Below, piece by piece: positions 5,583-62,721 of a stretch of DNA of 64,000 nucleotides; within the stretch, counting starts at the first letter, position 1, and every line of letters begins with the position of its first letter. This DNA is from a virus (lineage: Duplodnaviria > Heunggongvirae > Uroviricota > Caudoviricetes). The notes under the pieces are model-generated. The model had not been told where the DNA came from, did not search any database, and was given only the letters and a program-made list of their open reading frames with translations. The DNA lies in the IMG/VR virus record IMGVR_UViG_3300042890_003920. The stretch is one strand, 5' to 3'. Both the position numbers and the translations under genes were made by a program.

Positions 5583-5590
5583 CAAAGATA
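5583..5590 (-). promoter_or_regulatory. Bacteroidota sigmaA-type -7 box (TATCTTTG)
   Basis: reverse complement of caaagata immediately upstream of ATG at 5576..5578. Confidence 0.5.
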
Positions 5591-5594
5591 CAAT

Positions 5595-6245
5595 TTATAT
5601 TTCAGTCTCACAAGAAGACATCACTTCATTTATCTTCTTTTCTCTACTATCTGCAATTATCTGATAGATATAATCGGTAAGACCTTCTTGTTTAAGAGTA
5701 TCTATATTATTGAAAACACTTCTACTTTCTACATAATCTTCTATGAAGAATGGTTGATTCTGTTTTAACCAATCAATCCAAGCCCTTTGACTATTAATAT
5801 CAATATTTGGTTTATCCCATTCTTGTTGAATAACTTCACAGTTATCGAATGATGGTAAATGACCGATATATGAACCTATCAATTTAATATTTATTTTTAG
5901 ATGATCGTTATTTCTTGGATCAAACTGGTAAGAATTTATTAGTTTATCTTTGAGTGTTTTACCAACTAAAGTAAATTTTATCTGACCTTCGTGATAGATA
6001 CAAAGAGCTATCTTTGTGTTTTGTAGTTTTGATGGATAATTTCCCTGAGCTAACGCACCACCTTGATACAATCCTTCTTGATAAGCTTTGGTTTTTAAAG
6101 CCGTTTTTAGATGATTCTGTGGTGTATCATAGATTACTTTACCACCAATATAAAAACCTCTTAGTTCTTCTACTGGTGAGAATGAGCCGTCTTTTTTAAT
6201 GATTGGTAGTATTTTTATTATGTCACCGTCTTTTAGTTTGTACAT
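5595..6245 (-). CDS. hypothetical protein, 216 aa
   Basis: long ORF. Confidence 0.55.
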   Translation of the reverse strand: MYKLKDGDIIKILPIIKKDGSFSPVEELRGFYIGGKVIYDTPQNHLKTALKTKAYQEGLYQGGALAQGNYPSKLQNTKIALCIYHEGQIKFTLVGKTLKDKLINSYQFDPRNNDHLKINIKLIGSYIGHLPSFDNCEVIQQEWDKPNIDINSQRAWIDWLKQNQPFFIEDYVESRSVFNNIDTLKQEGLTDYIYQIIADSREKKINEVMSSCETEI

Positions 6246-6254
6246 GATTTTAAC

Positions 6255-6551
6255 TTAATTAAAGCAGATATAATTACCTACATAATATCTATTAAAAGTT
6301 TGAGGATCGATATAAACCGTTATAAATGTACCATTCTGATTTATATCAAATGAATATTGAGTGTTTCCATTATTTCTTTTAGAAGCGATTAAGCCACAAC
6401 CATAATATCTTTCAGTATAATTTGGATATAAAAATCCAATATTGTAATAAACTGGATTTATATAATTTGGAATTTGATAATTTGGAATTGGTTCTACAAC
6501 ACATCCACTTAATGTAAATGATAGTACAATTGCTAATATAATTTTTTTCAT
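6255..6551 (-). CDS. lipoprotein (signal peptide MKKIILAIVLSFTLSGC)
   Basis: lipobox-like LSGC, Tyr/Asn-rich mature part. Confidence 0.55.
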   Translation of the reverse strand: MKKIILAIVLSFTLSGCVVEPIPNYQIPNYINPVYYNIGFLYPNYTERYYGCGLIASKRNNGNTQYSFDINQNGTFITVYIDPQTFNRYYVGNYICFN

Positions 6552-6555
6552 AGTT

Positions 6556-6783
6556 TTATTTTTTTAGTTTTTTTATTTCAATTATAAATATGTATTTGAA
6601 TGCTGCCCACATCCAAAATACGGTAGCAGAGGTAACTACTAGATTTATGAACAATTGTTTTATCGAGAAACCTTGTTGGTATATATACCACCATCCACAT
6701 ATACTATTAACGATTAGTGATAGCATACATAAAATCATAAATGTTATATAAATAACATCACCAGGTGTTGGTTTTACTTTCAT
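6556..6783 (-). CDS. small membrane protein (2 TM)
   Basis: ORF 75 aa, two hydrophobic helices. Confidence 0.5.
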   Translation of the reverse strand: MKVKPTPGDVIYITFMILCMLSLIVNSICGWWYIYQQGFSIKQLFINLVVTSATVFWMWAAFKYIFIIEIKKLKK

Positions 6784-7067
6784 ATTAAATCGTTTTTATA
6801 TATCTCTACTGCTCTTTCTAAGATTCTTTTCAACTCTTTTTTATCCATTCTTGGGTCTTCAATATCAAAATCAACATTAAATGCAAATTTAGGTCGTTGT
6901 TCTACTATTTTATCACCAAAGAGCCAATATTTTTTATACACTTCTTCGGTATATCCAAAATAAAAGTTGTACCCTTTAAAGATGGCTGTTGATGCGGCAT
7001 CATTACTATGAGTGTAATGTTTTGAATAAAAATATTCTTCACCTAAAATTATTATACTTTTCATCAT
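6780..7067 (-). CDS. hypothetical protein
   Basis: ORF 95 aa, ATGA overlap. Confidence 0.5.
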   Translation of the reverse strand: MMKSIIILGEEYFYSKHYTHSNDAASTAIFKGYNFYFGYTEEVYKKYWLFGDKIVEQRPKFAFNVDFDIEDPRMDKKELKRILERAVEIYKNDLI

Positions 7068-7286
7068 TTATATCAATTTATTTAATTTTTTATCTCTTTC
7101 TACTTCTAAGGTAGCATCTTCAAATTGTCCCAATAAAAGATAGTATGAATCATTATCATAGTTATCATTGACTTTAACAATTAAATTAGCATCAAACTTT
7201 GAAGTACCAATATAGTCGATTACTTTATATACTTCACCTTCACTTAATCGGTAACCATCCTTTTTTATACATCTTACCCACTTCAT
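7068..7286 (-). CDS. family-B small protein (MKWVRCIKKDGY...ERDKKLNKLI)
   Basis: N-terminal MKxVxC motif, G.VYKV, C-terminal R.KKLNKLI tail. Confidence 0.6.
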   Translation of the reverse strand: MKWVRCIKKDGYRLSEGEVYKVIDYIGTSKFDANLIVKVNDNYDNDSYYLLLGQFEDATLEVERDKKLNKLI

Positions 7287-7675: not shown

Positions 7676-7786
7676 ATTACATTAATAGTATTGTTAATAC
7701 AAGTATTATACCGAGTATTACTCTTGCTATAGACCAATACTTAGCTTCTTTGGCATTTTTCTTTGCGGTTTCTTCAAATGGATTCA

Positions 7787-8481: not shown

Positions 8482-8790
8482 TTAGTTAAGGTTTTGTAGT
8501 TGTAGTTGTAATCTTTCGATTTGTTGAGTAATCAATCTTCTTTGAGCTTCTCTTTGAGCTAAACGAATAGAATCCCATTGTGTTGGTATTTTAGTAGATA
8601 CTTTTGTTTCTGTATCAAAGATATAAGCACTTAGTATACCACAAGATGTTGTTGTAGCTGAGAATTTCTCGATAGCTTCGTTTATAGTAATTTCACTATT
8701 GCTATCACGTGTTTCTATAATACACATATCATCCTCGGTTAAAGGGACGTTAAATCTGTTGTAAGCACTGTTTAAAACTAATCTTCTCAT
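8482..8790 (-). CDS. hypothetical protein (start moved to MRRLVLNS)
   Basis: ORF-track start is a non-ATG codon; ATG at 8788..8790 lies about 13 nt downstream of -7 box TATCTTTG (8809..8816). Confidence 0.45.
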   Translation of the reverse strand: MRRLVLNSAYNRFNVPLTEDDMCIIETRDSNSEITINEAIEKFSATTTSCGILSAYIFDTETKVSTKIPTQWDSIRLAQREAQRRLITQQIERLQLQLQNLN

Positions 8791-8876
8791 TTCATTTTCA
8801 TTTAAGTACAAAGATAAACAAATTTTATGTAAAAAGATATTTTGGAAATGATATTTTTATTTAATATATACATAAT

Positions 8877-9293
8877 ATGAAGATAAAGAGAATAGGTGAA
8901 TTCAATACCACAAATATCAAGACAAAACAATATAAAGACTATCTTTTAGTCATAGGTAAAAGTTCAGACATATTCGACTATTTTGGAGTTGAAGAACTAC
9001 ACGGGTTAAAAAGATCTGAATGCTACGATACACCAGATGATGCATACATTGCCGGGCTTTGTAATCAATTCCCTGATGATCCATCAAAGCAGTTCTTATT
9101 CATAAATGAGATAAGAATTGGAAGAAGCTACAAAGACGTTCTTTTGATAATGCATGAGGCAATGCATCTATCATTGGAAGTACATGGATATAACCTACAA
9201 GGTGATACAGAAGAAGTAGCAATTACATATGGGGAAAATGTGGCTACAGAGATATGTGAATATCTAAAGTCGATAGGAATATTGAAGATATGA
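8877..9293 (+). CDS. putative zinc metallopeptidase-like protein (HEAMH motif)
   Basis: HExxH in LLIMHEAMHLSLEVHGYN; TAATATATACATAAT motif ends 2 nt before ATG. Confidence 0.4.
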   Translation: MKIKRIGEFNTTNIKTKQYKDYLLVIGKSSDIFDYFGVEELHGLKRSECYDTPDDAYIAGLCNQFPDDPSKQFLFINEIRIGRSYKDVLLIMHEAMHLSLEVHGYNLQGDTEEVAITYGENVATEICEYLKSIGILKI

Positions 9294-9296: not shown

Positions 9297-9337
9297 AAAA
9301 AAAAGAGAGGGTCTTAATAAGACCCTCTCTTTTATTA
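9297..9337. terminator. bidirectional rho-independent terminator
   Basis: gagagggtc-ttaataa-gaccctctc hairpin with A-run and T-run between convergent genes. Confidence 0.8.
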
Positions 9338-10398: not shown

Positions 10399-10406
10399 CA
10401 AAGATA
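10399..10406 (-). promoter_or_regulatory. sigmaA-type -7 box TATCTTTG
   Basis: about 12 nt upstream of ATG 10380. Confidence 0.5.
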
Positions 10407-11022: not shown

Positions 11023-11122
11023 TAGTCAGGACAGGATTCGAACCTGTATGTAACTTTATGTTTCCACTCCGTCTATAGTTACTACGGTATACTTAGCGTC
11101 TTACCAATTCCGCCACCTGACT
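11023..11122 (-). tRNA. tRNA (class-II-like, isotype undetermined; D-arm resembles tRNA-Leu)
   Basis: 7-bp acceptor AGTCAGG/CCTGACT, D-arm GCG-GAATTGGTAAGA-CGC, T-arm ACAGG-TTCGAAT-CCTGT; about 99 nt with a non-canonical anticodon/variable region; own -7 box at 11187..11194. Confidence 0.65.
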
Positions 11123-11186: not shown

Positions 11187-11194
11187 CAAAGATA
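11187..11194 (-). promoter_or_regulatory. sigmaA-type -7 box TATCTTTG upstream of tRNA
   Basis: motif about 58 nt upstream of mature 5' end; leader contains cttccgggaag palindrome. Confidence 0.45.
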
Positions 11195-11666: not shown

Positions 11667-11952
11667 CTGCTAAGTTATATGCGTCTTGTAGATTTTTATC
11701 TGCAGGTCTATTGATAGTTTTGATTAGTTTTAATACTTGACTATGTTTTAACAAACCTTGTTTGATTTGATTATCAGTAGGGTTGTGGTATCTATTTACA
11801 ACCTTTAACAGAGACTTAAACTGTTCTGCTAATGAAGTAGCAGTATGTGCCAGTTTTAGTTCTTCTAAAGCTTTATTATAAGTAAAGTTAGTTGCTTTGA
11901 AGTTATTCATTTCTTCTTTATGTATTTCTTGTAATTCTTTGATAGATGTCAT
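11641..11952 (-). CDS. hypothetical helical protein
   Basis: ORF 103 aa; -7 box TATCTTTG at 11972..11979. Confidence 0.5.
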   Translation of the reverse strand: MTSIKELQEIHKEEMNNFKATNFTYNKALEELKLAHTATSLAEQFKSLLKVVNRYHNPTDNQIKQGLLKHSQVLKLIKTINRPADKNLQDAYNLAVEEFQNID

Positions 11953-12009
11953 ATGTCGTTATTTAATACAACAAAGATATGGATATTATTTTATAATATA
12001 TACATTATT

Positions 12010-12456
12010 ATGAAACATTTAAAAAAATTTAATGAAAGTTTAGAACCAGTTGAGATCGATGAGTTAAAAGACTTCTGTGAGACATCACTCGCTTATCTAT
12101 TAGATGATGGGTATCAAGTTAGTGTATATGAATCAAGATTTAAAGATGTATCTGTAAGAGATAAAGTAAAGTATCCTGAGAAAGAACATACAATTGTAAG
12201 TTTGGGTTTAAAAGGAAAAATGGGTTATAGGTTATTCGATTGGAATGATATAAAAGATTATTACATACCATTTCTTCAAATGTTAGTAAGAAGATATGAA
12301 TTACTACCTTTCGGAATGTATGATAAGATTTGTTATTTTAATACCGAAGGTGGTTTTAGATATTTATCATTAGATCAAGTTATAAATGATAGGGTTGGCT
12401 CAGAACTTGGTAGTCGTTTGTGGGGAATAAATATAATGATAGTAGATAAGATATGA
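12010..12456 (+). CDS. family-A protein (MKHLKKFNES…DFCETSLAYLLDDG…WNDIKDYYIPFL)
   Basis: true start at ATGAAACAT directly after TAATATATACATTATT motif; ORF-track N-extension rejected. Confidence 0.7.
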   Translation: MKHLKKFNESLEPVEIDELKDFCETSLAYLLDDGYQVSVYESRFKDVSVRDKVKYPEKEHTIVSLGLKGKMGYRLFDWNDIKDYYIPFLQMLVRRYELLPFGMYDKICYFNTEGGFRYLSLDQVINDRVGSELGSRLWGINIMIVDKI

Positions 12457-12893
12457 AACATTTGAAAAGATATAATGAAAGTTTACAACCTAATGAGGTT
12501 GACGAGTTAAAAGACTTCTGTGAGACTTCATTGGCTTATCTATTAGATGATGGATATAATGTTGATGTTTCTATAAGAAATTCAGTAGGGTATCCAGGAA
12601 ATAATCAAGTAATCGTAAGTTTGGGTTTACCTACATATAGTGAAAGTGGTTTACTGGATTATAAAAGGTTCCATTGGAATGATGTAAAAGATTATTACAT
12701 ACCATTTCTTCAAATCTTAGTAAGAAGATATGAGTTGCTGCCTTATAGAGGTGAGGGTTATGTTTATTTTAATGGTGAGATGGGATTTGACTATTTCTCA
12801 TTAGATGAAGTAATAGATGATACGGTCAGTGGTATGAATCACATTGGTAGTAGTTTATGGGGTATAAATATAAAAATAGTAGATAAGATATAA
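12453..12893 (+). CDS. family-A protein, recent tandem duplicate of previous
   Basis: high nucleotide identity of first about 100 bp to 12010..; ATGA overlap. Confidence 0.7.
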   Translation: MKHLKRYNESLQPNEVDELKDFCETSLAYLLDDGYNVDVSIRNSVGYPGNNQVIVSLGLPTYSESGLLDYKRFHWNDVKDYYIPFLQILVRRYELLPYRGEGYVYFNGEMGFDYFSLDEVIDDTVSGMNHIGSSLWGINIKIVDKI

Positions 12894-16869: not shown

Positions 16870-17406
16870 TTATTTAAAGAATGATTTTAATTTGGTTAGA
16901 ACAGATTTATTTTCTTGTTTATATCCATCTATTATAAATTCAAACTCTGTTATATAAGATTCTAAAACATCATCAGTATCAGTATCATAATAAAGACCTG
17001 ATTTTATATCATCATTGATTAGTTTATTTACTTGGTAAAATAATTCTGTTTTACGATGAGGCCAGTGTTGTCTAGCAGCTTCTAAGTCACGTGTTACTTC
17101 TATTATGACATCTTTTTTATTTTTACGAGTATGTCCCATTTGTCTAGCATATTGTTTAAGTTCATATTGATTAGTAAGTCTGGTTAAGAATGGTATCATA
17201 TGGTCTTTTATATCGGACCATAATCTAGGATTCTCATTTAATTCTAGTGTAAGTTTGAAACTTAAACCTAAACCACTTCTAACTAACGTTATAGAAATAT
17301 TTAATTCTTCATCTAATAGATAAGCTAGATTCATTTCACAGAAGTCTTGTAGTTCTTCTTTGAAGGTGTCACCTACTGCTTCATTGAATGGTTTAATATG
17401 TTTCAT
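16870..17406 (-). CDS. family-A protein (MKHIKPFNEA…DFCEMNLAYLLDEE…WSDIKDHMIPFL)
   Basis: family motifs. Confidence 0.65.
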   Translation of the reverse strand: MKHIKPFNEAVGDTFKEELQDFCEMNLAYLLDEELNISITLVRSGLGLSFKLTLELNENPRLWSDIKDHMIPFLTRLTNQYELKQYARQMGHTRKNKKDVIIEVTRDLEAARQHWPHRKTELFYQVNKLINDDIKSGLYYDTDTDDVLESYITEFEFIIDGYKQENKSVLTKLKSFFK

Positions 17407-20286: not shown

Positions 20287-20901
20287 ATGAAATACTTAAA
20301 ATCATTTAATGAAGGTTCTACTACGACTGATGTAGATTATTATAAATCCGCTATACATTACTTCAATAATAATTTGAATAATGATAGAGCATTAGAATAT
20401 ATCAATAAAGCCATTGAGTTATCAGATAGAAAAAGTAATCCATACTATTTCGCTTTAAAACAAATGATTGAGGAAAAAGGACCTGAACCAAAGTTTGAAA
20501 GTAATGAGCAACAGATAGAAGCTTTAAAAGATTTATGTGATACTAATCTAGCTTATCTAAAAGATGATAATTTCATTGTAAGGGTTGTTCCTTCTAGACC
20601 TGATAGTTTCTATATATTTATTGGATCAGATGGATTTAATCCAAGTGGTGAAAGATATTATTTTAGTTGGTTATCTGTAAAGAATCATTTAATACCATTC
20701 TTTCATTACCTACTAAAAGATTTTAAGATACAAGATAATCCAAAGGGTACTAATAACAGAGGTGTATCATTTGTTAGTTATGGTACTTTTAATGATACTA
20801 ATGAGTATGTTAAGGTTGATCAAATCTTAAATGATGAGATAGAAGATGATAAACAAATAGCGGGTATATCTATTTATATTAAGTCGGAATACTTTATTTA
20901 A
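20287..20901 (+). CDS. divergent family-A protein (MKYLKSFNEG … LKDLCDTNLAYLKDD … LSVKNHLIPFF)
   Basis: family motifs with an inserted segment. Confidence 0.6.
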   Translation: MKYLKSFNEGSTTTDVDYYKSAIHYFNNNLNNDRALEYINKAIELSDRKSNPYYFALKQMIEEKGPEPKFESNEQQIEALKDLCDTNLAYLKDDNFIVRVVPSRPDSFYIFIGSDGFNPSGERYYFSWLSVKNHLIPFFHYLLKDFKIQDNPKGTNNRGVSFVSYGTFNDTNEYVKVDQILNDEIEDDKQIAGISIYIKSEYFI

Positions 20902-28833: not shown

Positions 28834-28841
28834 CAAAGTTA
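28834..28841 (-). promoter_or_regulatory. sigmaA-type -7 box TAACTTTG upstream of mgsA operon
   Basis: about 15 nt upstream of ATG. Confidence 0.45.
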
Positions 28842-30033: not shown

Positions 30034-30094
30034 ATAATTTCTTTTCACAAAGATAGTAAAAATAATTATAAAATAAAAATATGTATTGACTAAC

Positions 30095-39682: not shown

Positions 39683-39690
39683 ATTATTTG

Positions 39691-39772: not shown

Positions 39773-39782
39773 ATTGTTCTAT

Positions 39783-42992: not shown

Positions 42993-43000
42993 CAAAGATA
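42993..43000 (-). promoter_or_regulatory. sigmaA-type -7 box TATCTTTG
   Basis: about 17 nt upstream of ATG at 42973..42975 of a 43-aa hydrophobic peptide ORF (42847..42975). Confidence 0.4.
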
Positions 43001-44868: not shown

Positions 44869-45083
44869 TATTGTTTAAAGTATTTACTACGTGCCAAAAT
44901 ATTTCCACTAATTGCTGATACAAAACCTATTGTATAGATAAACCAATTAGGATATCTAAATCCATAGTAATGACCTGTATCGATGTCATACGTCATAATA
45001 CTTAAAAGTAATGGTGATGTTAGTATAATATAGATACCAACTGTTAGTGCAAAAACTAACTTTAATGTTTTAAAATTTGTCAT
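44868..45083 (-). CDS. small membrane protein (start MTNFKTLK)
   Basis: -7 box TATCTTTG at 45103..45110 lies downstream of the ORF-track start, so the start is moved. Confidence 0.45.
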   Translation of the reverse strand: MTNFKTLKLVFALTVGIYIILTSPLLLSIMTYDIDTGHYYGFRYPNWFIYTIGFVSAISGNILARSKYFKQ

Positions 45084-45190
45084 ATTAAATAATTTAATCC
45101 TCCAAAGATACAATAAATATTTATTTTATTTAAAAAATATAGTTTTATATTTTATAATAATAATATATAATAAAAAAATAAGTAATTTTT

Positions 45191-47591: not shown

Positions 47592-47622
47592 AAAAAAGCC
47601 TCGAAATATCGAGGCTTTTTTT
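47592..47622. terminator. bidirectional rho-independent terminator
   Basis: gcctcg-aaatat-cgaggc hairpin with A-run and T-run. Confidence 0.85.
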
Positions 47623-47983: not shown

Positions 47984-48038
47984 ATTTGTTAGTTTTTAGA
48001 TTACAAAGATAAGTAAATAATTTATATAAAAAAAATTA

Positions 48039-48296: not shown

Positions 48297-48305
48297 TTTA
48301 TATTT

Positions 48306-48464
48306 ATATTATTGTTCCCATTCCTAACCATTGTTCTTTATCACAATGTTTACACTTATGTAAGTTAGTGAAGCTGATCTGTTCTCCTTTTCCCGGAATT
48401 GGAGTTATTGGACGTATGTTCTTCCAATTATGAAATCCAAAAAAACATTTTATTTTATTTATCA
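48306..48464 (-). CDS. 52-aa Cys/His-rich small protein (MINKIKCFFGFHNW…HKCKHCDKEQW)
   Basis: open frame in an otherwise unannotated gap. Confidence 0.35.
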
Positions 48465-48466
48465 TA

Positions 48467-48637
48467 TTATTTTTTTTTATTGGTTAAAGGTATTAAAATT
48501 TCGTAATAATGGTAAAATATGTCATTATCTACTGCATAATGTGATAGTTTTATCTCACCACGAACTATTCTATTACTTATTTCTATACGTTTTTCTATGT
48601 TAGCACTACTTTCTAATCTTATATACTTCAATACCAT
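48467..48637 (-). CDS. hypothetical small protein (start MVLKYIRLES)
   Basis: -7 box TATATTTG (48664..48671) about 20 nt upstream; longer ORF-track form would cover the divergent promoter region. Confidence 0.4.
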   Translation of the reverse strand: MVLKYIRLESSANIEKRIEISNRIVRGEIKLSHYAVDNDIFYHYYEILIPLTNKKK

Positions 48638-48720
48638 ATTAGTTGATTTTATATTTATAAATGCAAATATACAAAAAATAATATTTTTTTTAATATATAC
48701 ATTATAAAAAAAAGTAAAAA

Positions 48721-50202
48721 ATGATATACCCAGGAACCTTCTCTTTAACACTTAGAGAAACAGAAGAAACAAGATTATCCGTTAAGCAAATGGATGACAA
48801 TTTAAAATTTTTAAACAACTTAGCTGATTCAGGTGGAAGTGGAACATCTGGTTCTTCTGGAACATCTGGTTCTTCTGGAACATCTGGTTCTTCTGGAACA
48901 TCTGGAGAACAAGGAATTCAAGGAGTTCAAGGTAATCAAGGTGGGCAAGGTATTGAAGGTCCAGTTGGTGTTTCGGGTTTAACTTGGCAAGGTTCTTGGA
49001 GTAATAACTCTTTATATGATATGAATGATGCTGTCGGTTATGCGTCAGCTTCTTGGTGGTGTGTTGCGACAGTTAGTTCAACAGCATCTGTAATAGCACC
49101 AGATTTAGATATAACAAATATAAATTGGACATTATTGGCCGCTCAAGGATCTCAAGGCCCAATGGGTGCACAAGGTGTTCAAGGACCAACAGGACCTCAA
49201 GGTATTCAAGGACCAACAGGACCTGGAGGATCTTCTACACAAACTTATGGTATAATGTCTCTTAATACAAACAATCCGAATGGAGAAACACTTGCGTATG
49301 ATATAAATAGAATTACTGCATTGGTAACTTGTCCAGTACGTTTACCAGCTTCAGCTCCAATAGGAAAAGAAATAAGTGTTTTTTCAGAAGTAAGTAGTGC
49401 TAGTGTAACAATATTCGGTGATAGTGTATTAAGTCTACCATTTCCATTCTTAATGGGTTCTGCAAATCAACAAACAGGTGCATTTTCAATTTTTGCTGGG
49501 GAGTCCTACGTATTTACTAGTTTGGGAAATGGTTTATGGAAAGTTAATAGCATATCTAAAACTATAATGTCTGGCTCTTCTGCTAGAACAAATGCCACAA
49601 GTACCACGATAAATGCAACAAATGTGTCTGTTTTGAATATAAATAATTCAGAAGGAAATATATTATCTAAAGATTCACTGAGATTTAGAAGAGACAATGG
49701 CTCTGGAACTAATAAATATATTGATTTATTAGTTCCTACTAACATTACTAATGATAGAACTATTACATTTCCAGACGCTACAGGTACTGTTGCTTTGACA
49801 AGTGCTATAGTTACTAAATCTGTGAAAGTAACGTTATCTTCTGCTGATTTATTAGGTTTAAATACAACTCCAAAAGTAATAATACCTGCGGTCTCAGGAA
49901 AGATTATAATTCCAACTCATATGTATCAAAATTATACATACAATAGTGCAAGTTATAATGTAAGTTCAAACGCTACTATTGGTTACCAAGGATTCAGTCC
50001 TCTATCACAAGTCGCATATGCACAAGTTGGTCTTACAATTACACCGTCTACAGATTCTTTTGCTATTAATGCACTATTTATGAGTTGGGTAACTTCTCAA
50101 TCATTAGTTAACACAAACATAACATTAGTATCTTCTACTGCAATAACATCCGGTAATGGTACACTGGATGTTTATGTGACATATTTTGAAATCGATGCAT
50201 AA
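48721..50202 (+). CDS. collagen-like repeat fibre protein, 493 aa
   Basis: GSSGTSGSSGTSG… and GEQGIQGVQGNQGGQGIEGPVG triplets; N-terminus related to 267..2075. Confidence 0.7.
   Translation: MIYPGTFSLTLRETEETRLSVKQMDDNLKFLNNLADSGGSGTSGSSGTSGSSGTSGSSGTSGEQGIQGVQGNQGGQGIEGPVGVSGLTWQGSWSNNSLYDMNDAVGYASASWWCVATVSSTASVIAPDLDITNINWTLLAAQGSQGPMGAQGVQGPTGPQGIQGPTGPGGSSTQTYGIMSLNTNNPNGETLAYDINRITALVTCPVRLPASAPIGKEISVFSEVSSASVTIFGDSVLSLPFPFLMGSANQQTGAFSIFAGESYVFTSLGNGLWKVNSISKTIMSGSSARTNATSTTINATNVSVLNINNSEGNILSKDSLRFRRDNGSGTNKYIDLLVPTNITNDRTITFPDATGTVALTSAIVTKSVKVTLSSADLLGLNTTPKVIIPAVSGKIIIPTHMYQNYTYNSASYNVSSNATIGYQGFSPLSQVAYAQVGLTITPSTDSFAINALFMSWVTSQSLVNTNITLVSSTAITSGNGTLDVYVTYFEIDA
48841..48906 (+). 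repeat. perfect 18-bp microsatellite (ggaacatctggttcttct) x3.6 in collagen-like gene
   Basis: seen directly. Confidence 0.9.
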
Positions 50203-50251: not shown

Positions 50252-50512
50252 TTTTATAAATTGTACTAGTAATGTTGGTACACAACCTAACATTGTCCAA
50301 ACCCAATCCATAAAATCTGGAGTTGAACCTGGTGTATATTTATCATGTAGTTCTTTTAATGCAGCAATCACTGCTACTACAATCAAAGAGTATAAAACTG
50401 GTTCGATATGTAGTAATGTAAATAAAACACATGATAGTGAATAAATTACCGCACCATATGCAAAATGGTTTGCTTTGTCTTCTACGATAACCGGTAATGG
50501 TAGTCTTTTCAT
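50249..50512 (-). CDS. small membrane protein
   Basis: -7 box TATCTTTG at 50530..50537. Confidence 0.5.
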   Translation of the reverse strand: MKRLPLPVIVEDKANHFAYGAVIYSLSCVLFTLLHIEPVLYSLIVVAVIAALKELHDKYTPGSTPDFMDWVWTMLGCVPTLLVQFIK

Positions 50513-50578
50513 ATTTTTGATTTGATTTACAAAGATACTAATTAAGATTTATAAAATCTATTTTTAATATATAATTTT

Positions 50579-51019
50579 ATGAAATATTTAAAACCATTTA
50601 ATGAATCACTTAAAGAAGAAACTGAATTGTTACAGGAGTTCTGTGATCTTAACTTGGCTTATCTTGTTGATGACGGTTTTAAAACTACAATAGAATCTGA
50701 TAATTATTCAAAAAGTCTTTACTTTACTAAAAACTATGATGGTAGGTTGTATTATAGTGATACATTCGAGTGGGATGAAATCAAGAATACGTTTATTCCT
50801 TTTCTGACATTATTAGAAAGAAGATATGGTGAGTACTATAAATTAGGTGAAAGTAGATTTAGATTACTTACGATAACGTATATTGAGTTTAATGATGCCG
50901 GTGAGAGAAATGGATTAAACACTGACAATATTTCATTAGATGATATAATAGATGTCAATGATGGTAATGTAGGTATTGATTCAATCGTATGTATAAAAAT
51001 TACATTAAGAAAGAAATGA
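50579..51019 (+). CDS. family-A protein
   Basis: MKYLKPFNES…EFCDLNLAYLVDDG…FEWDEIKNTFIPFL. Confidence 0.65.
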   Translation: MKYLKPFNESLKEETELLQEFCDLNLAYLVDDGFKTTIESDNYSKSLYFTKNYDGRLYYSDTFEWDEIKNTFIPFLTLLERRYGEYYKLGESRFRLLTITYIEFNDAGERNGLNTDNISLDDIIDVNDGNVGIDSIVCIKITLRKK

Positions 51020-51438
51020 TGTATTTAAAACGTTTTAATGAAGCTTCTTTCTTACCAAAAGACATAAGTGAACTGCAATATTTTTGTGAGAATTATTTAG
51101 CTTATTTACTGGATGAAGGATTTGGTATTCGTGTTAGACATGGTTCTCGTGAAGATAGAGCTCGTATAGAGTTTTATAAAGATGATGTACACTTTCCAGT
51201 TCCTTTTAACTGGAATGATGTTAAAGATCATTATATTCCTTTTTATCAAATGCTATCTAAAGAATATGAGATTAGTACAATGAGAAATTGTTCTGTTAAG
51301 TTTGAATATAGAAAACCTGCTAAACAATTATGGGAAACAGAAGCAAAATGGTTCACAGAAGAAGAAATAATAAATGATGAAGTAGGTGACTTGGGTAGTT
51401 ATGTTGGAGTCATTTCAATTTTCTTAGACAATAATTAA
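51016..51438 (+). CDS. family-A protein (start MMYLKRFNEAS)
   Basis: ATGATG overlap with previous stop; family motifs. Confidence 0.65.
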   Translation: MMYLKRFNEASFLPKDISELQYFCENYLAYLLDEGFGIRVRHGSREDRARIEFYKDDVHFPVPFNWNDVKDHYIPFYQMLSKEYEISTMRNCSVKFEYRKPAKQLWETEAKWFTEEEIINDEVGDLGSYVGVISIFLDNN

Positions 51439-52292: not shown

Positions 52293-52481
52293 TTATTTTT
52301 TAGATGGTGTTACATGTAATTTGTACATACTTCCGTTGTAAACGATATAGCTTTGTTCAACTACATTAGTTTTTACCCATACTTGGGTTGTTCCTTCTTG
52401 ACCTTCAAATGGTTTTGTTGTCAATTTTTCGTCTGTGATTTTAATAGTTCCTTTCATATGTATTATACAAAAATACGACAA
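52293..52481 (-). CDS. hypothetical small protein
   Basis: ORF 62 aa. Confidence 0.4.
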   Translation of the reverse strand: MSYFCIIHMKGTIKITDEKLTTKPFEGQEGTTQVWVKTNVVEQSYIVYNGSMYKLHVTPSKK

Positions 52482-52517
52482 TTAGTTTTACTAAAAAATA
52501 TTTTTTATATATACTAA

Positions 52518-52937
52518 ATGAAGTACTTGAAAACATTTAACGAAGGTTTATCCGATTTAACTTATTTAGAGATTTTAGATTTTTGTGAAGAAAACTTAGC
52601 TTATTTAATGGATGATGGTTTTAATGTTAGTGTACAGTCTGATAGATTTATGGATGAAATAGATTGGGAAGTAAGATTGAGAAATGATGAGAATCTTAAA
52701 TGGGATTATATTGAAAATCATTTAGTTCCGTTTTTTATACATTTAGATAAAGAATTTGAACTATGTAATATATCCAGTACTCATTCAGAATTAGAATTTT
52801 TTGTACGAGAATATGGTATAAATCACGGTTATAAGTGGCTTTCTATAAAAGATTTACTAAATCATGAAGGTGATTATGATAAATTAGTCGGTAATGTAGT
52901 AGAAAGTATAACATTTTATATAAAAAGTAGAAAATAA
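52518..52937 (+). CDS. family-A protein
   Basis: MKYLKTFNEG…DFCEENLAYLMDDG…LKWDYIENHLVPFF. Confidence 0.65.
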   Translation: MKYLKTFNEGLSDLTYLEILDFCEENLAYLMDDGFNVSVQSDRFMDEIDWEVRLRNDENLKWDYIENHLVPFFIHLDKEFELCNISSTHSELEFFVREYGINHGYKWLSIKDLLNHEGDYDKLVGNVVESITFYIKSRK

Positions 52938-53362
52938 TGAGATATATTAAGACATTTGAAGCAGATAATTGGTGGGTTGATAAGGTTGATAAAACTGAAT
53001 TAAAATCATTTGCGGAGTCATATTTAGCATATTTAATGGACGAAGGTTTTGTAATAGGTATAAATTTAGATCGTCATGAAGATGATGCTGCGGTTGATTT
53101 ACATTTAACTAATCCAGATAATACGATATATGAGAACGATATACCTTTTTTATGGGAAGATATAAAAGATCATTTTATTCCGTTTATGACAATGTTTAGT
53201 AAGAAATATAGTTTTTCTGTTTTGAAGTTATATGCTTCTCCTGGTTCTGAGGTTAGATCATTTAGATCGGGAACTGATAGTTTATTCCGTTTATTATCCG
53301 ATAGATTTGAAGTTGAAGAAGAGTTAAGAGAAATAGAAATAAGTAATATAAGAAGAGTATAA
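52937..53362 (+). CDS. family-A protein
   Basis: MRYIKTFEAD…FAESYLAYLMDEG…WEDIKDHFIPFM. Confidence 0.6.
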   Translation: MRYIKTFEADNWWVDKVDKTELKSFAESYLAYLMDEGFVIGINLDRHEDDAAVDLHLTNPDNTIYENDIPFLWEDIKDHFIPFMTMFSKKYSFSVLKLYASPGSEVRSFRSGTDSLFRLLSDRFEVEEELREIEISNIRRV

Positions 53363-53823
53363 TGAAATATTTAAAAAGATTTAACGAGTCTCGTCATGAA
53401 ATACTTACCAATCCTAAAAGATTTACTTTTGAATTTCAGGAAGGGTTAAAAGATTTCTGTGAAACACATTTAGCTTATTTAGTTGATGATGGTTATTCAA
53501 TTAAGGTTGCTACTAATACTATGTCATTAAAAAGATTTGATGAACAAAATGATAATCAAATTTATGCTAGTTTAGTTGATTGTGGTGAAGAGATTGTTGA
53601 TACTATAGATGATCCACGTAACTTTAATTGGGATAATATAAAAAATAGTTTCATACCATTTATCCAACACTTATCTAAACAATATAATATAGGTAAAATT
53701 TATGTGTATGGATATTCACAGAATGGTGAGGAAATGTTATCTTATACTTATACACTACAACAAGTATTAGATGATGATAATATTGCACCAGTAATTTACT
53801 CTATATTTTTAAGGATTGACTAA
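53362..53823 (+). CDS. family-A protein
   Basis: MKYLKRFNES…DFCETHLAYLVDDG…FNWDNIKNSFIPFI. Confidence 0.65.
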   Translation: MKYLKRFNESRHEILTNPKRFTFEFQEGLKDFCETHLAYLVDDGYSIKVATNTMSLKRFDEQNDNQIYASLVDCGEEIVDTIDDPRNFNWDNIKNSFIPFIQHLSKQYNIGKIYVYGYSQNGEEMLSYTYTLQQVLDDDNIAPVIYSIFLRID

Positions 53824-53991
53824 CAATCCTTTTTTTATTTATATAATTTATGTATATTTGTAAATTATGAAAGAAGAAAGTAAAACTTGGATAGAAGTAA
53901 AGCAATCACAACTTGATCTATTAAATAAAAAATTTGGTATTGCATTAAAGTTAGTTAAAAGAAAACAAGCTATTAGAAAATTATTTGGAAT

Positions 53992-54778: not shown

Positions 54779-54954
54779 AACTATGTAAGATAACTGGACA
54801 CTTTTGGAAACACAACTATGAACTTATAAAAAAGGATGATCCTATTTTAACAGAGGTTAGAATTTGTAGCTTCTGTAAAAGAAAAGATATTATAGTTGAA
54901 CCAACTCTAGCAGATAAACGAGATATGAAGTTAAGACAATTAGGAATAAAGTAA
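54775..54954 (+). CDS. 59-aa CxxC…CxxC protein with family-B tail (…RDMKLRQLGIK)
   Basis: ATGA overlap with previous gene; below track cutoff. Confidence 0.4.
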   Translation: MKLCKITGHFWKHNYELIKKDDPILTEVRICSFCKRKDIIVEPTLADKRDMKLRQLGIK

Positions 54955-54981
54955 TTGGTTTACTATTTTACTAACTCGTAT

Positions 54982-56607: not shown

Positions 56608-56679
56608 ATTAGTGAAATTTTTTATAAAGATATAAAAAGATTATCAATGTAACAAATAATTTTTTTTAATATATAATCT

Positions 56680-57369
56680 ATGACATTAAATGAAAAAGAT
56701 AAACAAAGATTGTTATTATTCTTAGAAGACAATGAATTAGACTATACTCCAATTGATAATGGTATAATTCGTTTTCATCTTATTGCTGAGGATGGTATGA
56801 CTTTTTATGTAATAAACAACGAAGATGAGTATTTAATCACCAAATATAACAAGGATAAAGACAGACCAGGGTCAGTTCCATACGAAAACTATCAATTTAA
56901 GACACTTTCAGAGGTTTTAGAGCAATTAAAGTTCTATGACAATAATTTACCTAAAGTATACTGGGAACCTACATTAGAGTCAATACAAATAGGTTTTGAT
57001 AAAGATAATCATATAGAGGATTGGTATTCATCATTTATTAAAGATGATTGTTATAAAGTTGAAGAAGATGATCAATATAAATACTTTTCTTATACAAATG
57101 AAGGTTATAAACCAGAATTGATTTCACCATTTAATACTTTACACGAAGTAAGTGCTTTTAATGATTTGCAATTAGAAAAGATTGATAAGTTATACTTTGA
57201 AGTACATCCAATTTCTTGTGTAAAGAAAAGGGAAAGTTATTTAGTAAAGTTATTATGTAATAATGATAACATTTTCAAAGAGTATATAAACTATAAAGTT
57301 TATAAAGAAAAGGGATTAAAACTAATGTTGAATACTTTATTCAATGATATGGAAAAATATAAATTATAA
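56680..57369 (+). CDS. hypothetical protein, 229 aa
   Basis: ORF; ttaatatataatct motif upstream. Confidence 0.55.
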   Translation: MTLNEKDKQRLLLFLEDNELDYTPIDNGIIRFHLIAEDGMTFYVINNEDEYLITKYNKDKDRPGSVPYENYQFKTLSEVLEQLKFYDNNLPKVYWEPTLESIQIGFDKDNHIEDWYSSFIKDDCYKVEEDDQYKYFSYTNEGYKPELISPFNTLHEVSAFNDLQLEKIDKLYFEVHPISCVKKRESYLVKLLCNNDNIFKEYINYKVYKEKGLKLMLNTLFNDMEKYKL

Positions 57370-57866
57370 TGAAGTATTTAAAAACATTTGAAACAATTGA
57401 CTTTAATGACATTTTTAGTTTAAATGGATCAAGAGCTAAAAGAGAAGAACTTAAAGATTTCTGTGAGACATATTTGGCTTATCTTATGGATGATAGTATA
57501 AAAGAATTGAAAGTTGGTAAACCAACACTATTACAAACTGAAAAATATGTTTGTTATAATGTTGAGATATACTTTAATAAAAGTGTACACTGGAACCAAA
57601 TTAAAGATCAATTTATACCTTTTCTTCAAATGATTCAAAAAGAATATGTTTTTAGAGAAGATAATATAGGAAGAATGTGTTCTATTGCATGGAGAGTAGA
57701 AGATAGTTTGGTTACAATACCTAAACAATATACTTTAAAAGAATTATTAGAAGATAAAATAGAAACTAATTTTACTTTTGAGTTAGGTTCTGATCGCAAA
57801 GCATCTATACAGGGTAATGTTGGTTCAATAAAATTAGATATATTAGAAGAAGTTAGTAAAGGCTAA
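57369..57866 (+). CDS. family-A protein
   Basis: MKYLKTFETI…DFCETYLAYLMDDS…VHWNQIKDQFIPFL. Confidence 0.65.
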   Translation: MKYLKTFETIDFNDIFSLNGSRAKREELKDFCETYLAYLMDDSIKELKVGKPTLLQTEKYVCYNVEIYFNKSVHWNQIKDQFIPFLQMIQKEYVFREDNIGRMCSIAWRVEDSLVTIPKQYTLKELLEDKIETNFTFELGSDRKASIQGNVGSIKLDILEEVSKG

Positions 57867-57873: not shown

Positions 57874-58188
57874 TTAGATTTCTTTCAAACCATTAAAAAC
57901 AATTTTTTTATAATCACAATCAATAAAAGCTCTTTTCACTTTATCACCTTGACCACCTCTCCATTGATTTTCATTAAACCATTGTGCAAACTTAACAAGT
58001 TGTGTTCTGGTTATAAGTCCAAACTCTTCTGGATATTCCAAAATATATTTTTGTGAAAATTCTCTTGGCTCAGGAATAAGTTCTAATGTTTGAGACCAAC
58101 GAGAAGTGTTATTTTCATCGTGCCATAGATAACCATTATCTTTTTTAGTTCCTTGTGCGTCGTATTTTTTACCTGTAATTATATTCAT
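57874..58188 (-). CDS. hypothetical protein (start MNIITGKKYD)
   Basis: -7 box TATATTTG at 58208..58215 preceded by TTTG; ORF-track start lies upstream of the promoter. Confidence 0.45.
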   Translation of the reverse strand: MNIITGKKYDAQGTKKDNGYLWHDENNTSRWSQTLELIPEPREFSQKYILEYPEEFGLITRTQLVKFAQWFNENQWRGGQGDKVKRAFIDCDYKKIVFNGLKEI

Positions 58189-58268
58189 ACTTTTAATTTT
58201 AGAACTACAAATATACAAACTTATTTTAAAGTGTGAAAATATAAAAGTATAATTTAATATATACTTTT

Positions 58269-58604
58269 ATGAAACACTTAAAACAATTTGAAAGTTACTT
58301 TGATAAAGACTCTCTATGGACTGAGGCGGATGGAGATGTAATCTTAAACGCATTTGATAATGAAACAATCACTGATGCAACAAAAGAAATAGAAACTAAA
58401 CCTGCTTATCGTTCAAATGGTGACCAAGTTGAAACAACATTTACATTTAAAATAGATGGTAGATCAATCTTTGTTCAGTATATAGAGTATCCTAATAGAG
58501 ATCCACATATTGTTATTAGAATAGGTGGTTATTTTACTACTATACCAACAGATAGTGAATACCGTACAGAGATTTTAAAAAGGTGTATGGATACTATAAA
58601 ATAA
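58269..58604 (+). CDS. small protein with MKHLKQFESY N-terminus
   Basis: taatttaatatatactttt motif abuts ATG. Confidence 0.55.
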   Translation: MKHLKQFESYFDKDSLWTEADGDVILNAFDNETITDATKEIETKPAYRSNGDQVETTFTFKIDGRSIFVQYIEYPNRDPHIVIRIGGYFTTIPTDSEYRTEILKRCMDTIK

Positions 58605-58606: not shown

Positions 58607-58635
58607 AAAAACCACTCATATGAGTGGTTTTTTTA
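58607..58635 (+). terminator. rho-independent terminator
   Basis: accactca-ta-tgagtggt hairpin followed by T-run. Confidence 0.8.
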
Positions 58636-59824: not shown

Positions 59825-59832
59825 TATCTTTG
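59825..59832 (+). promoter_or_regulatory. plus-strand sigmaA-type -7 box TATCTTTG
   Basis: upstream of 59871..60347. Confidence 0.4.
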
Positions 59833-60347: not shown

Positions 60348-60382
60348 AAAAATACCACTCATTTGAGTGGTATTTTTTTTTA
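60346..60382 (+). terminator. rho-independent terminator (near-copy of 58607..58635 hairpin)
   Basis: ataccactca-ttt-tgagtggtat followed by T-run. Confidence 0.8.
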
Positions 60383-60393: not shown

Positions 60394-60843
60394 ATGATAT
60401 ATATAAAACTCTTTGATAATTTTAATCCAAATCACTATATTATAAGTTCTGATAAAATAGACGAAAGTTTATTGAATGGAATTGATGCAATACTTGCACC
60501 TATCGGTGATGATGGTTACAAGTACAATCATTTTATTTATGATAAAGACAAAGTTCATAATGATAATAGAAGATTAGAGATAAGTATTTATGTAGAAGGT
60601 GAAGATACTTTTACGGAAAAATCTAATATTATTATCGGTTCTGAAATAAAAGAAGCGGTACTTACTTTACTTGATTTCTTGAAAAGAAGAACTGGGAATG
60701 AAGCAAGTATTTATGTTTGGGATCATAATGATTATCAATTCATTGATATGAAAGATACTGATACACACGGTCTTGAAGATCTTGATGATTTAAGAGAGGA
60801 ATATGCGGAAACAGATTCTATGAAAATAGTTGTATTATTATGA
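60394..60843 (+). CDS. hypothetical acidic protein
   Basis: ORF 149 aa; ttaatatatagtat motif abuts ATG. Confidence 0.5.
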   Translation: MIYIKLFDNFNPNHYIISSDKIDESLLNGIDAILAPIGDDGYKYNHFIYDKDKVHNDNRRLEISIYVEGEDTFTEKSNIIIGSEIKEAVLTLLDFLKRRTGNEASIYVWDHNDYQFIDMKDTDTHGLEDLDDLREEYAETDSMKIVVLL

Positions 60844-61250
60844 AGCATTTAAAAATATATGAAGCATTTGATGTTTTTAAAGACAAATTAGATGAATTAC
60901 AAGACTTTTGTGATACATATTTGGCTTATATGACAGATAAAGGTGTAGTTTTAACAGTTACTCCTAATAGTCGTTTATCTAGTACTATATTTGTACTTTC
61001 TGTTAGGTCTGTTGAAAGTAGAGATTTTGAATGGAATGACATAAAAGATTATTTCATACCATTTTTAGAAGTACTTACTAATAAAATTGGTCGTGGAAAC
61101 ATCATGACAAATTCTGATCCAAATCATGAATTTAAGTTTGTAAACAATAGAGGTGTATTTTATCGTAGTTTAGAAGATGTTATCGCTGATAAAGTTCCTA
61201 ATATTATGCCTTCAATAGAATCATTATCGTTCGCTATTAAGTATTATTGA
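60840..61250 (+). CDS. family-A protein
   Basis: MKHLKIYEAF…DFCDTYLAYMTDKG…FEWNDIKDYFIPFL. Confidence 0.65.
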   Translation: MKHLKIYEAFDVFKDKLDELQDFCDTYLAYMTDKGVVLTVTPNSRLSSTIFVLSVRSVESRDFEWNDIKDYFIPFLEVLTNKIGRGNIMTNSDPNHEFKFVNNRGVFYRSLEDVIADKVPNIMPSIESLSFAIKYY

Positions 61251-61532
61251 TAGTTTTTCATTTCTAATTTCTTGTAAGGCAAATGCTTCTAACCCTTCTA
61301 ATTCAACCAATTCAGGTGAATGTTTTATTCCTTTTTCATCTATTATAACTGTGAAGTGTGTACCATTTTTTTTGAATGTTATAAGTTTCATTGTACCATT
61401 CCAACCATATGATGATTTCACACCTAATTGTTTATCAACAAAATTTAATAAAATCGGTGAGGTTTCTTCGGTAAGCCAATTGTAAATTATCATATTAAAA
61501 TTTGTGTGATACTGGTATATTCTGACCAACAA
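61224..61532 (-). CDS. family-B-tail protein (…LQEIRNEKLSIILNSER)
   Basis: tail motif. Confidence 0.5.
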   Translation of the reverse strand: MLVRIYQYHTNFNMIIYNWLTEETSPILLNFVDKQLGVKSSYGWNGTMKLITFKKNGTHFTVIIDEKGIKHSPELVELEGLEAFALQEIRNEKLSIILNSER

Positions 61533-61953
61533 TTGCTAAAACACTTTTCTCAAATCTATTACCATCATTATCAATAAATATAACTTGATGAATACCTGGG
61601 GTTACTTTTACTTTCATTTTTGGTGTATCTCCTAACACTTTACCATCCAAAACCACTTTTGATGTTGGAGTTGAACTTATATTTAAGTAACCTGTTGGTT
61701 CTGATCTTAAATATTTTAGTAGAAGATTACCTATTCCCATAATAATTAGACCGAGTAGTCCAATCGCAATGGCACCAAGTACAATTACTAAATAAATTGC
61801 AACACCGATCCATAAAGGTGAAGTGACCCACCACCAAGACCAAGTCGCGACTTGTCCTACTCCACCTAGTTTAAGACCTAGAAATAAAAGAAAAAGTAAT
61901 CCAGCAAAGCTGATACCACTTGATTGTTGTTGTTTTGTTATAGTTTTCTTCAT
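61495..61953 (-). CDS. membrane protein (multiple TM helices)
   Basis: ORF 152 aa. Confidence 0.5.
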   Translation of the reverse strand: MKKTITKQQQSSGISFAGLLFLLFLGLKLGGVGQVATWSWWWVTSPLWIGVAIYLVIVLGAIAIGLLGLIIMGIGNLLLKYLRSEPTGYLNISSTPTSKVVLDGKVLGDTPKMKVKVTPGIHQVIFIDNDGNRFEKSVLAIVGQNIPVSHKF

Positions 61954-62001
61954 TTATATTTTATTTATTTTTTTGAAAAAGTTGAATTTAATATATACTT
62001 A

Positions 62002-62469
62002 ATGAAGTATTTAAAAAGATTTAATGAATCGGTAGATTTTGAAGAAAAGTTAAGAGATTTTTGTGAAACACATTTAGCTTACCTATTAGATGAGGGATTT
62101 GAAGTAGTTTTAAACGATTTAGATGAAACTTATGATTGTGAGATTACTATTAAAAGAGAAGATCAAAGAACATTTACTTGGGATGAAGTTAAAGATCATA
62201 TAGTTCCTTTTATAATACATCTTAACAAAGAATATGAATTATATAAAAGTGATGACTGTGATGATGATGAATATTTACCTGTAAAAGTTGGAGATGTTGG
62301 TTATATTCAATCTGAACTTTCTTCTTTATACGAACCATTCTCAATCGAAAATATTTCTGATGAGAGTTATGAACCATTCTTAGGTTACAAAATTGGACCT
62401 GATGAGTATAAAAATGATATGGGTACAAGATTATCTTCTATTGTTATTTACGCTGCTCTCGCAAACTAA
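62002..62469 (+). CDS. family-A protein (start MKYLKRFNES)
   Basis: family motifs; aatttaatatatactta abuts ATG; ORF-track N-extension rejected. Confidence 0.65.
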   Translation: MKYLKRFNESVDFEEKLRDFCETHLAYLLDEGFEVVLNDLDETYDCEITIKREDQRTFTWDEVKDHIVPFIIHLNKEYELYKSDDCDDDEYLPVKVGDVGYIQSELSSLYEPFSIENISDESYEPFLGYKIGPDEYKNDMGTRLSSIVIYAALAN

Positions 62470-62493
62470 TAATCTACTTTTCATATAATCTGT

Positions 62494-62706
62494 ATGAGTT
62501 ACGTTATAGATTTTGGTGGTACAATTATGGAAGTTCCCTTAACATTTTTCAAAAAAAACTTAGAATATAAAATAATTCGTCATGATCTTATTGGAGATAC
62601 GCACTTCATAAATTATGGTGGAATGACTATTTCTGTTCATAATAACATTTGGCAAAAAGTTCAAATAGATTTAAGAGATAGTAAAATAGATATTATATTA
62701 GAATAA
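62494..62706 (+). CDS. small protein with tail QIDLRDSKIDIILE
   Basis: ORF 70 aa. Confidence 0.45.
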   Translation: MSYVIDFGGTIMEVPLTFFKKNLEYKIIRHDLIGDTHFINYGGMTISVHNNIWQKVQIDLRDSKIDIILE

Positions 62707-62713
62707 TTTTTTA

Positions 62714-62721
62714 TATCTTTG
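62714..62721 (+). promoter_or_regulatory. plus-strand -7 box TATCTTTG giving near-leaderless start at 62727
   Basis: box ends 5 nt before ATG. Confidence 0.4.

Follow-up and report, generated by a model that had tools for sequence, protein, structure and literature searches.

The 64,000-nucleotide (nt) stretch of the Caudoviricetes virus record IMGVR_UViG_3300042890_003920 analysed here, hereafter the window, has a G+C content of ~30% and carries ~140 mostly small, tightly packed open reading frames (ORFs). Recognised genes encode thymidylate synthase (ThyA), FolD, RpiB, pirin, an MGS-like protein, an SPFH protein, methyltransferases, LRR proteins, a DUF4832/DUF4874 protein and two tail-fibre-like proteins, and most of the ~60 ORFs scanned against PHROGs and Pfam had no family. 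About twenty copies of an octamer of the pattern TAnnTTTG, mostly conforming to the consensus TATCTTTGTA and here termed class A boxes, lie just upstream of unrelated gene blocks; most same-strand gene blocks begin with either a class A box or a copy of a second motif, class B, which consists of a T-run followed by TAATATATAC. An earlier note on this DNA had listed 15 class A octamers as host-type −7 promoter elements, and all 15 are present, position and strand alike (Table 1). We argue below that these boxes are very probably host sigma-A-type promoters of a phage of Bacteroidota.

Enrichment and orientation of class A boxes

Across the whole window the loose pattern TAnnTTTG is weakly enriched, with 126 matches against 107 ± 10.5 expected and 3 of 100 shuffles reaching 126. 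Its dominant variant, TATCTTTG, occurs 18 times against 5.8 ± 2.4 expected, a count that none of 100 shuffles attained. Twelve of these 18 copies are intergenic and aimed at the next gene (the copy at 11972 included, once the neighbouring plus-strand start is placed at 12010), and the 6 copies inside genes are about the number expected by chance. Intergenic DNA, which makes up 7.3% of the window, holds 26 TAnnTTTG matches against 8.5 ± 2.8 expected (maximum of 17 in 500 dinucleotide shuffles), corresponding to a density of 3.0 per kb per strand compared with 0.83 in coding DNA. Of 28 boxes, 22 share the orientation of the next gene. The region 0–40 nt upstream of first or second ATGs contains 19 TAnnTTTG boxes, against a mean of 5.5 ± 3.4 for 450 patterns of the same composition, and the patterns that outscored TAnnTTTG in this control were all phase shifts of TATCTTTGTA. 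The enrichment near starts over background that the earlier note predicted is thus found both in intergenic DNA and upstream of ATGs. Escherichia coli-type −35/−10 consensus sequences were not enriched in the window (121 against 118.5 expected, 102 against 129.5 and 128 against 131.8).

Because the flanks of the boxes and the first codons downstream of them are unrelated between sites, paralogy or duplication does not explain the class A signal. The marginal window-wide count of the loose pattern might suggest chance matches in AT-rich intergenic DNA, an explanation that we hold to be extremely improbable: placement, orientation and enrichment of the class A boxes reject chance, as judged by the intergenic dinucleotide shuffles, the same-composition permutations and the orientation bias, and the boxes are moreover conserved in relatives.

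Conservation of class A boxes in relatives

Two close relatives of the window, L001 and L002, lie on metagenome contigs and share 86–98% nucleotide identity with it, and a distant relative, L003, shares 43% amino-acid identity across a 799-amino-acid (aa) protein. In L001 and L002 the six fixed box positions showed 0 differences in 60 comparisons, against 175 in 1,634 (10.7%) at other intergenic positions (p = 0.002), and leaders and spacers diverge around intact boxes. The single change at a middle position in relatives converts TATCTTTG to TACCTTTG (box 42993, L001). This box is retained in both L001 and L002, from which the adjoining 43-aa ORF is absent. When window positions 42850–42978 are compared with L001 (~7776–7780) and L002 (~1561–1565), the indel coincides precisely with the edge of the promoter.

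In 26 related viral loci (435 kb), TATCTTTG was found upstream of starts 9 times, against 0.82 ± 1.37 in 336 permutations, and was the top-scoring 8-mer of its composition. The one 8-mer that tied with it, TAGTTTTC, was rejected as an artefact, being part of a shared pirin coding sequence. The class A architecture recurs in L020, L021, L030, L035 and L003, and it does so with gaps to the ATG of the shortest type in L003 (4 nt), L021 (4 nt) and L030 (5 nt).

Match to the Bacteroidota −7 element

Alignment of 17 class A sites revealed six invariant positions (T, A, T, T, T and G) and two variable middle positions, which are TC in 12 of the 17 and otherwise AC, TA or TT in the window, with CC added by L001. 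TA stands directly 3′ of the box in 12–13 of the 17 sites, and a purine is usual at the fifth position after the final G. The DNA upstream of the box is AT-rich, with an AA pair 11–12 nt and a T-run 21–23 nt before it. A G at the middle positions is found in 1 of 21 oriented intergenic boxes, as against 29 of 98 background matches (Fisher p = 0.024), and the sole exception, at 58216, overlaps the box at 58208.

Promoters read by the primary sigma factor of Bacteroidota have been described as −33 TTTG/−7 TAnnTTTG (Bayley 2000, Vingadassalom 2005 and Chen 2007, as cited in PMC9723704; Baez 2019, PMC6847099). In Flavobacterium johnsoniae the −7 element reads T-12 A-11 T-8 T-7 T-6 G-5 with no G at −10/−9, and was published as TAHHTTTG; its −33 element is weak, and the gap between box and transcription start is 4–5 nt (PMC6847099). 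In F. psychrophilum the box spans −12 to −5 (PMC9723704). The class A boxes would then be −7 elements covering −12 to −5, read by host RNA polymerase with a Bacteroidota-type primary sigma factor, and on the published geometry transcription would start 4–5 nt past the final G.

Gene starts and leader geometry

Gaps from box to ATG fall into two clusters, one of 17–20 nt (9 of the 15 boxes claimed previously) and one of 3–6 nt, to which 5583, 62714, 53853 and, as a doubtful fourth, 52037 belong; single gaps occur at 10, 14, 26, 33 and 38 nt. The spacing of 5–20 nt given in the earlier note fits 12 of its 15 boxes if widened to 4–20 nt, and does not fit 48664 (26 nt), 59825 (38 nt) or 11187 (64 nt).

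Table 1. Coordinates of class A boxes, class B motifs and other features of the window. Gaps run from the end of the motif to the ATG.
Feature	Position	Strand	Gap (nt)	ATG	Remarks
Class A, TATCTTTG	5583..5590	-	4	5578	Leaderless geometry; corrected gene 5123-5578, 151 aa (start moved from 5611)
Class A, TATCTTTG	8809..8816	-	18	8790	Corrected gene 8482-8790, 102 aa (start moved from 8811); heads 14-gene array of small ORFs, 8790 to 4069
Class A, TATCTTTG	10399..10406	-	18	10380	Precedes 71-aa ORF and SPFH/Band_7 gene
Class A, TATCTTTG	11187..11194	-			64 nt from 5′ end of tRNA-like gene
Class A, TATCTTTG	11972..11979	-	19	11952	Back to back with class B motif 11994-12003(+)
Class A, TAACTTTG	28834..28841	-	20	28813	Heads 24-gene unit including MGS-like, FolD, methyltransferase and RpiB genes
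Class A, TATCTTTG	30048..30055	-	14	30033	29-aa hydrophobic ORF, 29943-30033
Class A, TATCTTTG	42993..43000	-	17	42975	43-aa ORF
Class A, TATCTTTG	45103..45110	-	19	45083	Corrected gene 44868-45083 (start moved from 45113); heads pirin-containing unit
Class A, TATCTTTG	48004..48011	-	20	47983	
Class A, TATATTTG	48664..48671	-	26	48637	Corrected gene 48467-48637 (start moved from 48751); divergent from class B motif 48691-48700(+)
Class A, TATCTTTG	50530..50537	-	17	50512	Divergent from class B motif 50565-50574(+)
Class A, TATATTTG	58208..58215	-	19	58188	Corrected gene 57874-58188, 104 aa (start moved from 58218)
Class A, TATCTTTG	59825..59832	+	38	59871	
Class A, TATCTTTG	62714..62721	+	5	62727	Leaderless geometry
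Class A, TATATTTG	53853..53860	+	6	53867	Absent from earlier list; directly after terminator 53811-53831
Class A	52468	-	10		Absent from earlier list
Class A	42248	-	33		Absent from earlier list
Class A	63623	-	12		Absent from earlier list
Class A, doubtful	52037	-	3		Absent from earlier list
Degenerate box, TATCTTTA	56625..56632	-	17	56607	Final G to A (single mismatch); kept in L001
Class B, T-run + TAATATATAA/C	50565..50574	+	4	50579	
Class B	8862, 11994, 12946, 20274, 30874, 37687, 52505, 56667, 58255, 60381, 61989	+	3-6		
Class B	18872, 32378, 59528	-	3-6		
Class B	20912, 32408, 45161, 48691	+	17-24		
Class B	3185, 20226, 30823	-	17-24		
Divergent A/B regions	8790-8877, 11952-12010, 45083-45191, 48637-48721, 50512-50579, 52457-52518, 58188-58269				Class A leftward, class B rightward
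Paralogue family members	12010-12456, 12453-12893, 20287-20901, 30887-31471, 37700-39031, 50579-51438, 52518-53823, 57369-57866, 60840-61250, 62002-62469	+			
Paralogue family members	16870-17406, 31473-31982, 31979-32374	-			
tRNA-like gene	11023..11122	-			Atypical, 100 nt; Rfam RF00005, 37.3 bits against gathering score of 29
Pirin-like gene	43706-44377	-			
Two-way hairpin terminators	9301-9333, 47592-47621, 58607-58632				Strong, T-runs on both strands, between convergent genes
One-way terminators	53811-53831, ~60358-60373				Directly 5′ of box 53853 and class B motif 60381, respectively
Long gene-free gaps	3161-3437, 35172-35536, 40340-40541, 48297-48466, 54779-54981				

Box positions also bear on gene starts, six of which had been said to lie at an internal methionine; the five that were listed all hold, and the sixth was never listed. 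In each of the five, the long ORF opens with a GTG or TTG that is within or before the box, and the earliest ATG in frame comes after it. Public JGI gene calls match the corrected lengths of 151 aa (5123.., on the public contig L050), 102 aa (8482..) and 104 aa (57874..), and a 2-nt indel in L001 breaks the supposed N-terminal extension of 48467..48751. The same logic moves the start of the plus-strand gene 11953 to 12010, and the start of gene 61924 was moved to 62002, in agreement with public calls of 155 aa.

Two boxes had been described as lying 5–8 nt from the ATG and as giving near-leaderless transcripts. The two close boxes are there, with gaps of 4 and 5 nt, and since the published spacing from box to transcription start is itself 4–5 nt (PMC6847099), the transcripts from 5583 and 62714 would be leaderless rather than near-leaderless. 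Transcription at these two sites, and probably at 53853 (6 nt), would begin on the A of the ATG or on a neighbouring nucleotide, and most other units would carry a short A-rich leader of ~12–16 nt. The degenerate box at 56625–56632(-) is a possible weak promoter of a unit that has no other recognisable motif.

Tight clustering of the gap at 17–20 nt would also be expected of a motif that acts on RNA, as a translation or processing signal in the 5′ untranslated region. We consider this highly improbable because other gaps to an ATG occur as well (4–6, 14, 26 and 38 nt) and one box precedes a tRNA-like gene by 64 nt, because a box 4–5 nt from an ATG cannot be part of the transcript if that ATG is used, and because class B shows the same two spacings, for which a fixed short leader after a promoter is the simpler explanation.

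A second motif class and its units

Of 33 class B matches, 25 precede a start by no more than 45 nt, and the gaps cluster at 3–6 and 17–24 nt, so that class A and class B fall into the same two spacing groups relative to the ATG. If class B is −10-like, the copies 3–6 nt from an ATG would give leaderless mRNAs too. In L003 the motif likewise precedes the gene for the 799-aa homologue, with the 20-nt spacing unchanged, and it is also present in L020 and L035. The motif that the earlier note proposed as a second promoter class is real and conserved in relatives, but an 18-member paralogue family, in which genes often begin immediately after the motif, contributes some of the signal; ~12 copies precede genes outside this family. 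Class B is probably a separate promoter element of the −10-only type, read by a phage-specified or phage-modified polymerase.

All 18 paralogues lie within the 64 kb and in class B units, several of them in tandem. Many share the N-terminus MK(Y/H)LKxFNE followed by DFCETxLAYLxDxG, and the members scanned had no Pfam or PHROG match.

Seven short divergent regions (57–107 nt) hold a class A box facing leftward and a class B motif facing rightward, at variable mutual spacing, and the same arrangement is seen in L020 (16565–17341) and L003 (~1700–1775). Class A units comprise 73 genes with an average product of ~100 aa; class B units comprise 55 genes of ~190 aa, the tail-fibre-like and LRR genes among them.

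Recognition and order of expression

The assignment of the boxes to the −7 type of Bacteroidota sigma-A, as first put forward in the earlier note, is supported by a match that is position for position, non-random, gene-oriented and kept in relatives, and we regard recognition by the host sigma factor as very probable. Whereas the identity of the motif and its position, orientation, enrichment and conservation are shown directly, its reading by host sigma-A, the sites of transcription start and the early timing are inferred. Several observations weigh against it. The −33 TTTG that had been claimed alongside the −7 box is just a weak T-run: T occupies 14, 12 and 10 of the 17 sites at −23 to −21 from the box start, which agrees with a −33 element placed ~19–21 nt before the −7 element, and there is no conserved G. 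The near-invariance of TATCTTTGTA goes beyond what the host consensus needs, and an extra phage factor could take part. When the 26 related loci are pooled, the loose TAnnTTTG pattern shows no clear enrichment (29 against 20.7 ± 7.2). The two classes are not cleanly split by gene content, a class A unit containing FolD and RpiB and a class B unit ThyA. Finally, no sigma factor or RNA polymerase was recognised in the ~60 of ~140 window ORFs that were scanned.

The strictness of TATCTTTGTA, seen in the prevalent TC and the following TA, and the recurrence of this strict form in related phages would also suit a phage-specific signal that merely resembles the host −7 element and serves as the target of a phage-encoded sigma factor or a phage regulator. 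We think this very unlikely because the positions that never change coincide with the six read by the host sigma factor while the extra positions vary, and because the ORFs scanned yielded no sigma-like gene. Early promoters of phages, those of T4 for example, usually fit the consensus more closely than host promoters do, which likewise counts against a phage-specific signal.

If the boxes are host-read promoters, they would head long packed arrays of small ORFs together with auxiliary metabolic genes (MGS-like, FolD, RpiB, pirin and SPFH), and, judging from other large lytic phages, the class A units would most likely be expressed before phage-specific transcription takes over. The gene content, with small-ORF arrays in class A and tail-fibre-like genes in class B, favours early expression of class A, the order suggested in the earlier note. 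The order might instead be reversed or not sequential, class B being early through a virion-packaged phage polymerase and class A being host-read in parallel or later. Early promoters of polymerase-encoding jumbo phages are ~10 nt long, AT-rich, highly conserved and centred near −10 (PMC7598289), a description that class B resembles; class B moreover holds its spacing in the relative with 43% amino-acid identity, and pirin relatives occur on contigs of up to 476 kb, a jumbo-phage size, with kinship resting on that gene and, in some, on shared motifs. We nevertheless regard such an order as unlikely, because tail-fibre-like genes, which are usually late, sit in class B units, because class A units resemble classic early small-ORF arrays, because neither the window, nor the adjoining 10 kb, nor the relatives sampled showed a phage polymerase gene, and because jumbo phages with their own polymerases generally skip host promoters.

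A broader proposal is that one lineage of large phages of Flavobacteria bases all its transcription on two minimal single-element promoters, the host-type TATCTTTGTA and the phage-type TAATATATAC, with mRNAs that are leaderless or carry a fixed leader of ~12–19 nt, the AT-rich class being served by a polymerase or sigma factor of the phage and possibly the true early one. We judge this unlikely. If true, it would mean that host-dependent and host-independent transcription coexist in one phage and that leaderless translation is routine in a phylum where it is rare.

Host

Upstream of the 140 starts, Shine-Dalgarno motifs are no more frequent than expected at random, and the same regions are depleted in G and enriched in A (62% A at −3, for example). 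A-rich, G-poor upstream regions have been described for Bacteroidota (PMC6847099). The DUF4832 protein had 14 genome matches, at 40–52% identity; 12 are in Flavobacterium, Flavobacteriaceae or Flavobacteriales and two further ones in other Bacteroidota, and a match labelled Bifidobacterium was taken as a binning error. The regions upstream of the Flavobacterium DUF4832 homologues contained no clean TAnnTTTG for comparison. The lack of Shine-Dalgarno motifs and the Flavobacterium homologues make a Bacteroidota host likely, and a type IX secretion domain on a related contig points the same way; within the phylum, these sequence features suggest that the host probably belongs to Flavobacteriales.

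Relatives and neighbouring features

Searches of a phage collection with the window by blastn and tblastn gave zero matches at either the nucleotide or the protein level, and no relatives of the 799-aa and 408-aa proteins were found in IMG/VR. The 799-aa protein was considered as a divergent polymerase subunit and ruled out, as it had no significant PDB match and its sequence is of low complexity and membrane-like. The pirin gene is 65–83% identical on 28 IMG/VR contigs (L020–L047), on which the large genes near pirin are mostly devoid of Pfam domains. On the contig of 476 kb, a neighbour of pirin carries the type IX secretion domain CHU_C. This domain and the sharing of pirin suggest a widespread group of very large Bacteroidota phages with this gene. 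The window comes from an uncultured marine phage that is probably large.

The public contig L050 carries the leftmost gene of the window exactly, together with 10 kb outside it. This additional stretch (L050 11809–21809, beyond the left edge of the window) contains a formyltransferase (Formyl_trans_N) gene and a uracil-DNA glycosylase gene, and several of its gene starts are preceded by TATATA-containing, class B-like sequences. A convincing class A box was not found there; one TAACTTTG sits within a gene.

The feature downstream of box 11187 had been called a tRNA, a label that is partly right: Rfam recognises the gene and ARAGORN does not, and its 100 nt start 64 nt past the box. Its acceptor, D and T arms are good, its anticodon region holds 41 nt against 15 in the model, and the extra nucleotides could be an intron or insertion. 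A second tRNA-like stretch, at ~39690–39785(-), combines a matching acceptor-like stem with a GGTTCGAGTCC T-loop; Rfam gave no match for it, and shuffled sequences fold at least as well. A similar stretch occupies the equivalent place in L020, upstream of 11721–12158. Some of the unusually long gene-free gaps (170–365 nt) contain short ORF-like stretches.

Implications

Phage use of the host promoter type is already well established, and the class A box is not a new kind of element; modest extra interest lies in the recurrent leaderless geometry and in the unexplained second motif. In practical terms, the boxes offer a way, from sequence alone, to fix gene starts and delimit units in a lineage with almost no annotatable genes, and together with the missing Shine-Dalgarno motifs they allow assignment to a Bacteroidota host, probably of Flavobacteriales. 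The sites with gaps of 4–5 nt, if confirmed by mapping, would provide a natural system for leaderless translation in Bacteroidota. The TATCTTTGTA promoter with its predicted ~14-nt A-rich leader, and the back-to-back A/B cassettes, could serve Flavobacterium genetics.

Comparison with known promoter systems

Class A boxes share with Bacteroidota sigma-A promoters the six invariant positions, the avoidance of G in the middle, the AT-rich upstream DNA, a weak −33 region of the kind seen in Flavobacterium and a location upstream of genes without Shine-Dalgarno motifs. They differ in a consensus, TATCTTTGTA, that is much stricter than TAnnTTTG. The predicted leaders are very short and uniform at ~12–16 nt, whereas leaders average 33 nt in F. 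johnsoniae (PMC6847099) and have a median length of 24 nt in F. psychrophilum (PMC9723704), and the leaderless geometry is recurrent here, whereas 5.5% of mapped F. psychrophilum mRNAs are leaderless (PMC9723704).

Like phage-specific −10-only promoters, class B is short, AT-rich, highly conserved, without a −35 partner and near the expected transcription start; unlike them, it has many copies 3–6 nt from the ATG. The late motif of T4 is TATAAATA, from which TAATATATAC differs. TAATATATAC is also unlike the published phiKZ (TATG) and AR9 (AACA-N6-TW) motifs, a comparison made with late motifs only (PMC7598289).

A literature search for described promoters of Flavobacterium or crAss-like phages was unproductive. 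In T4-type phages, strong host-sigma early promoters head arrays of small, fast-evolving ORFs in hyperplastic regions. The window resembles this arrangement in its small-ORF arrays and in a promoter kept at a mosaic boundary (box 42993, in L001 and L002), and differs from it in the type of sigma factor and in that no associated stem-loop cassette was seen here. For Bf12P1, a phage of Bacteroides fragilis, −7/−33 TTTG promoters have been predicted (PMC13139388), and the present phage, with its probable Bacteroidota host, resembles Bf12P1 in having gene modules preceded by host-type elements that contain TTTG. In Bf12P1, however, host-type promoters were assigned to early, middle and late modules alike (PMC13139388), whereas in the window roughly half of the units begin with the second, unrelated motif.

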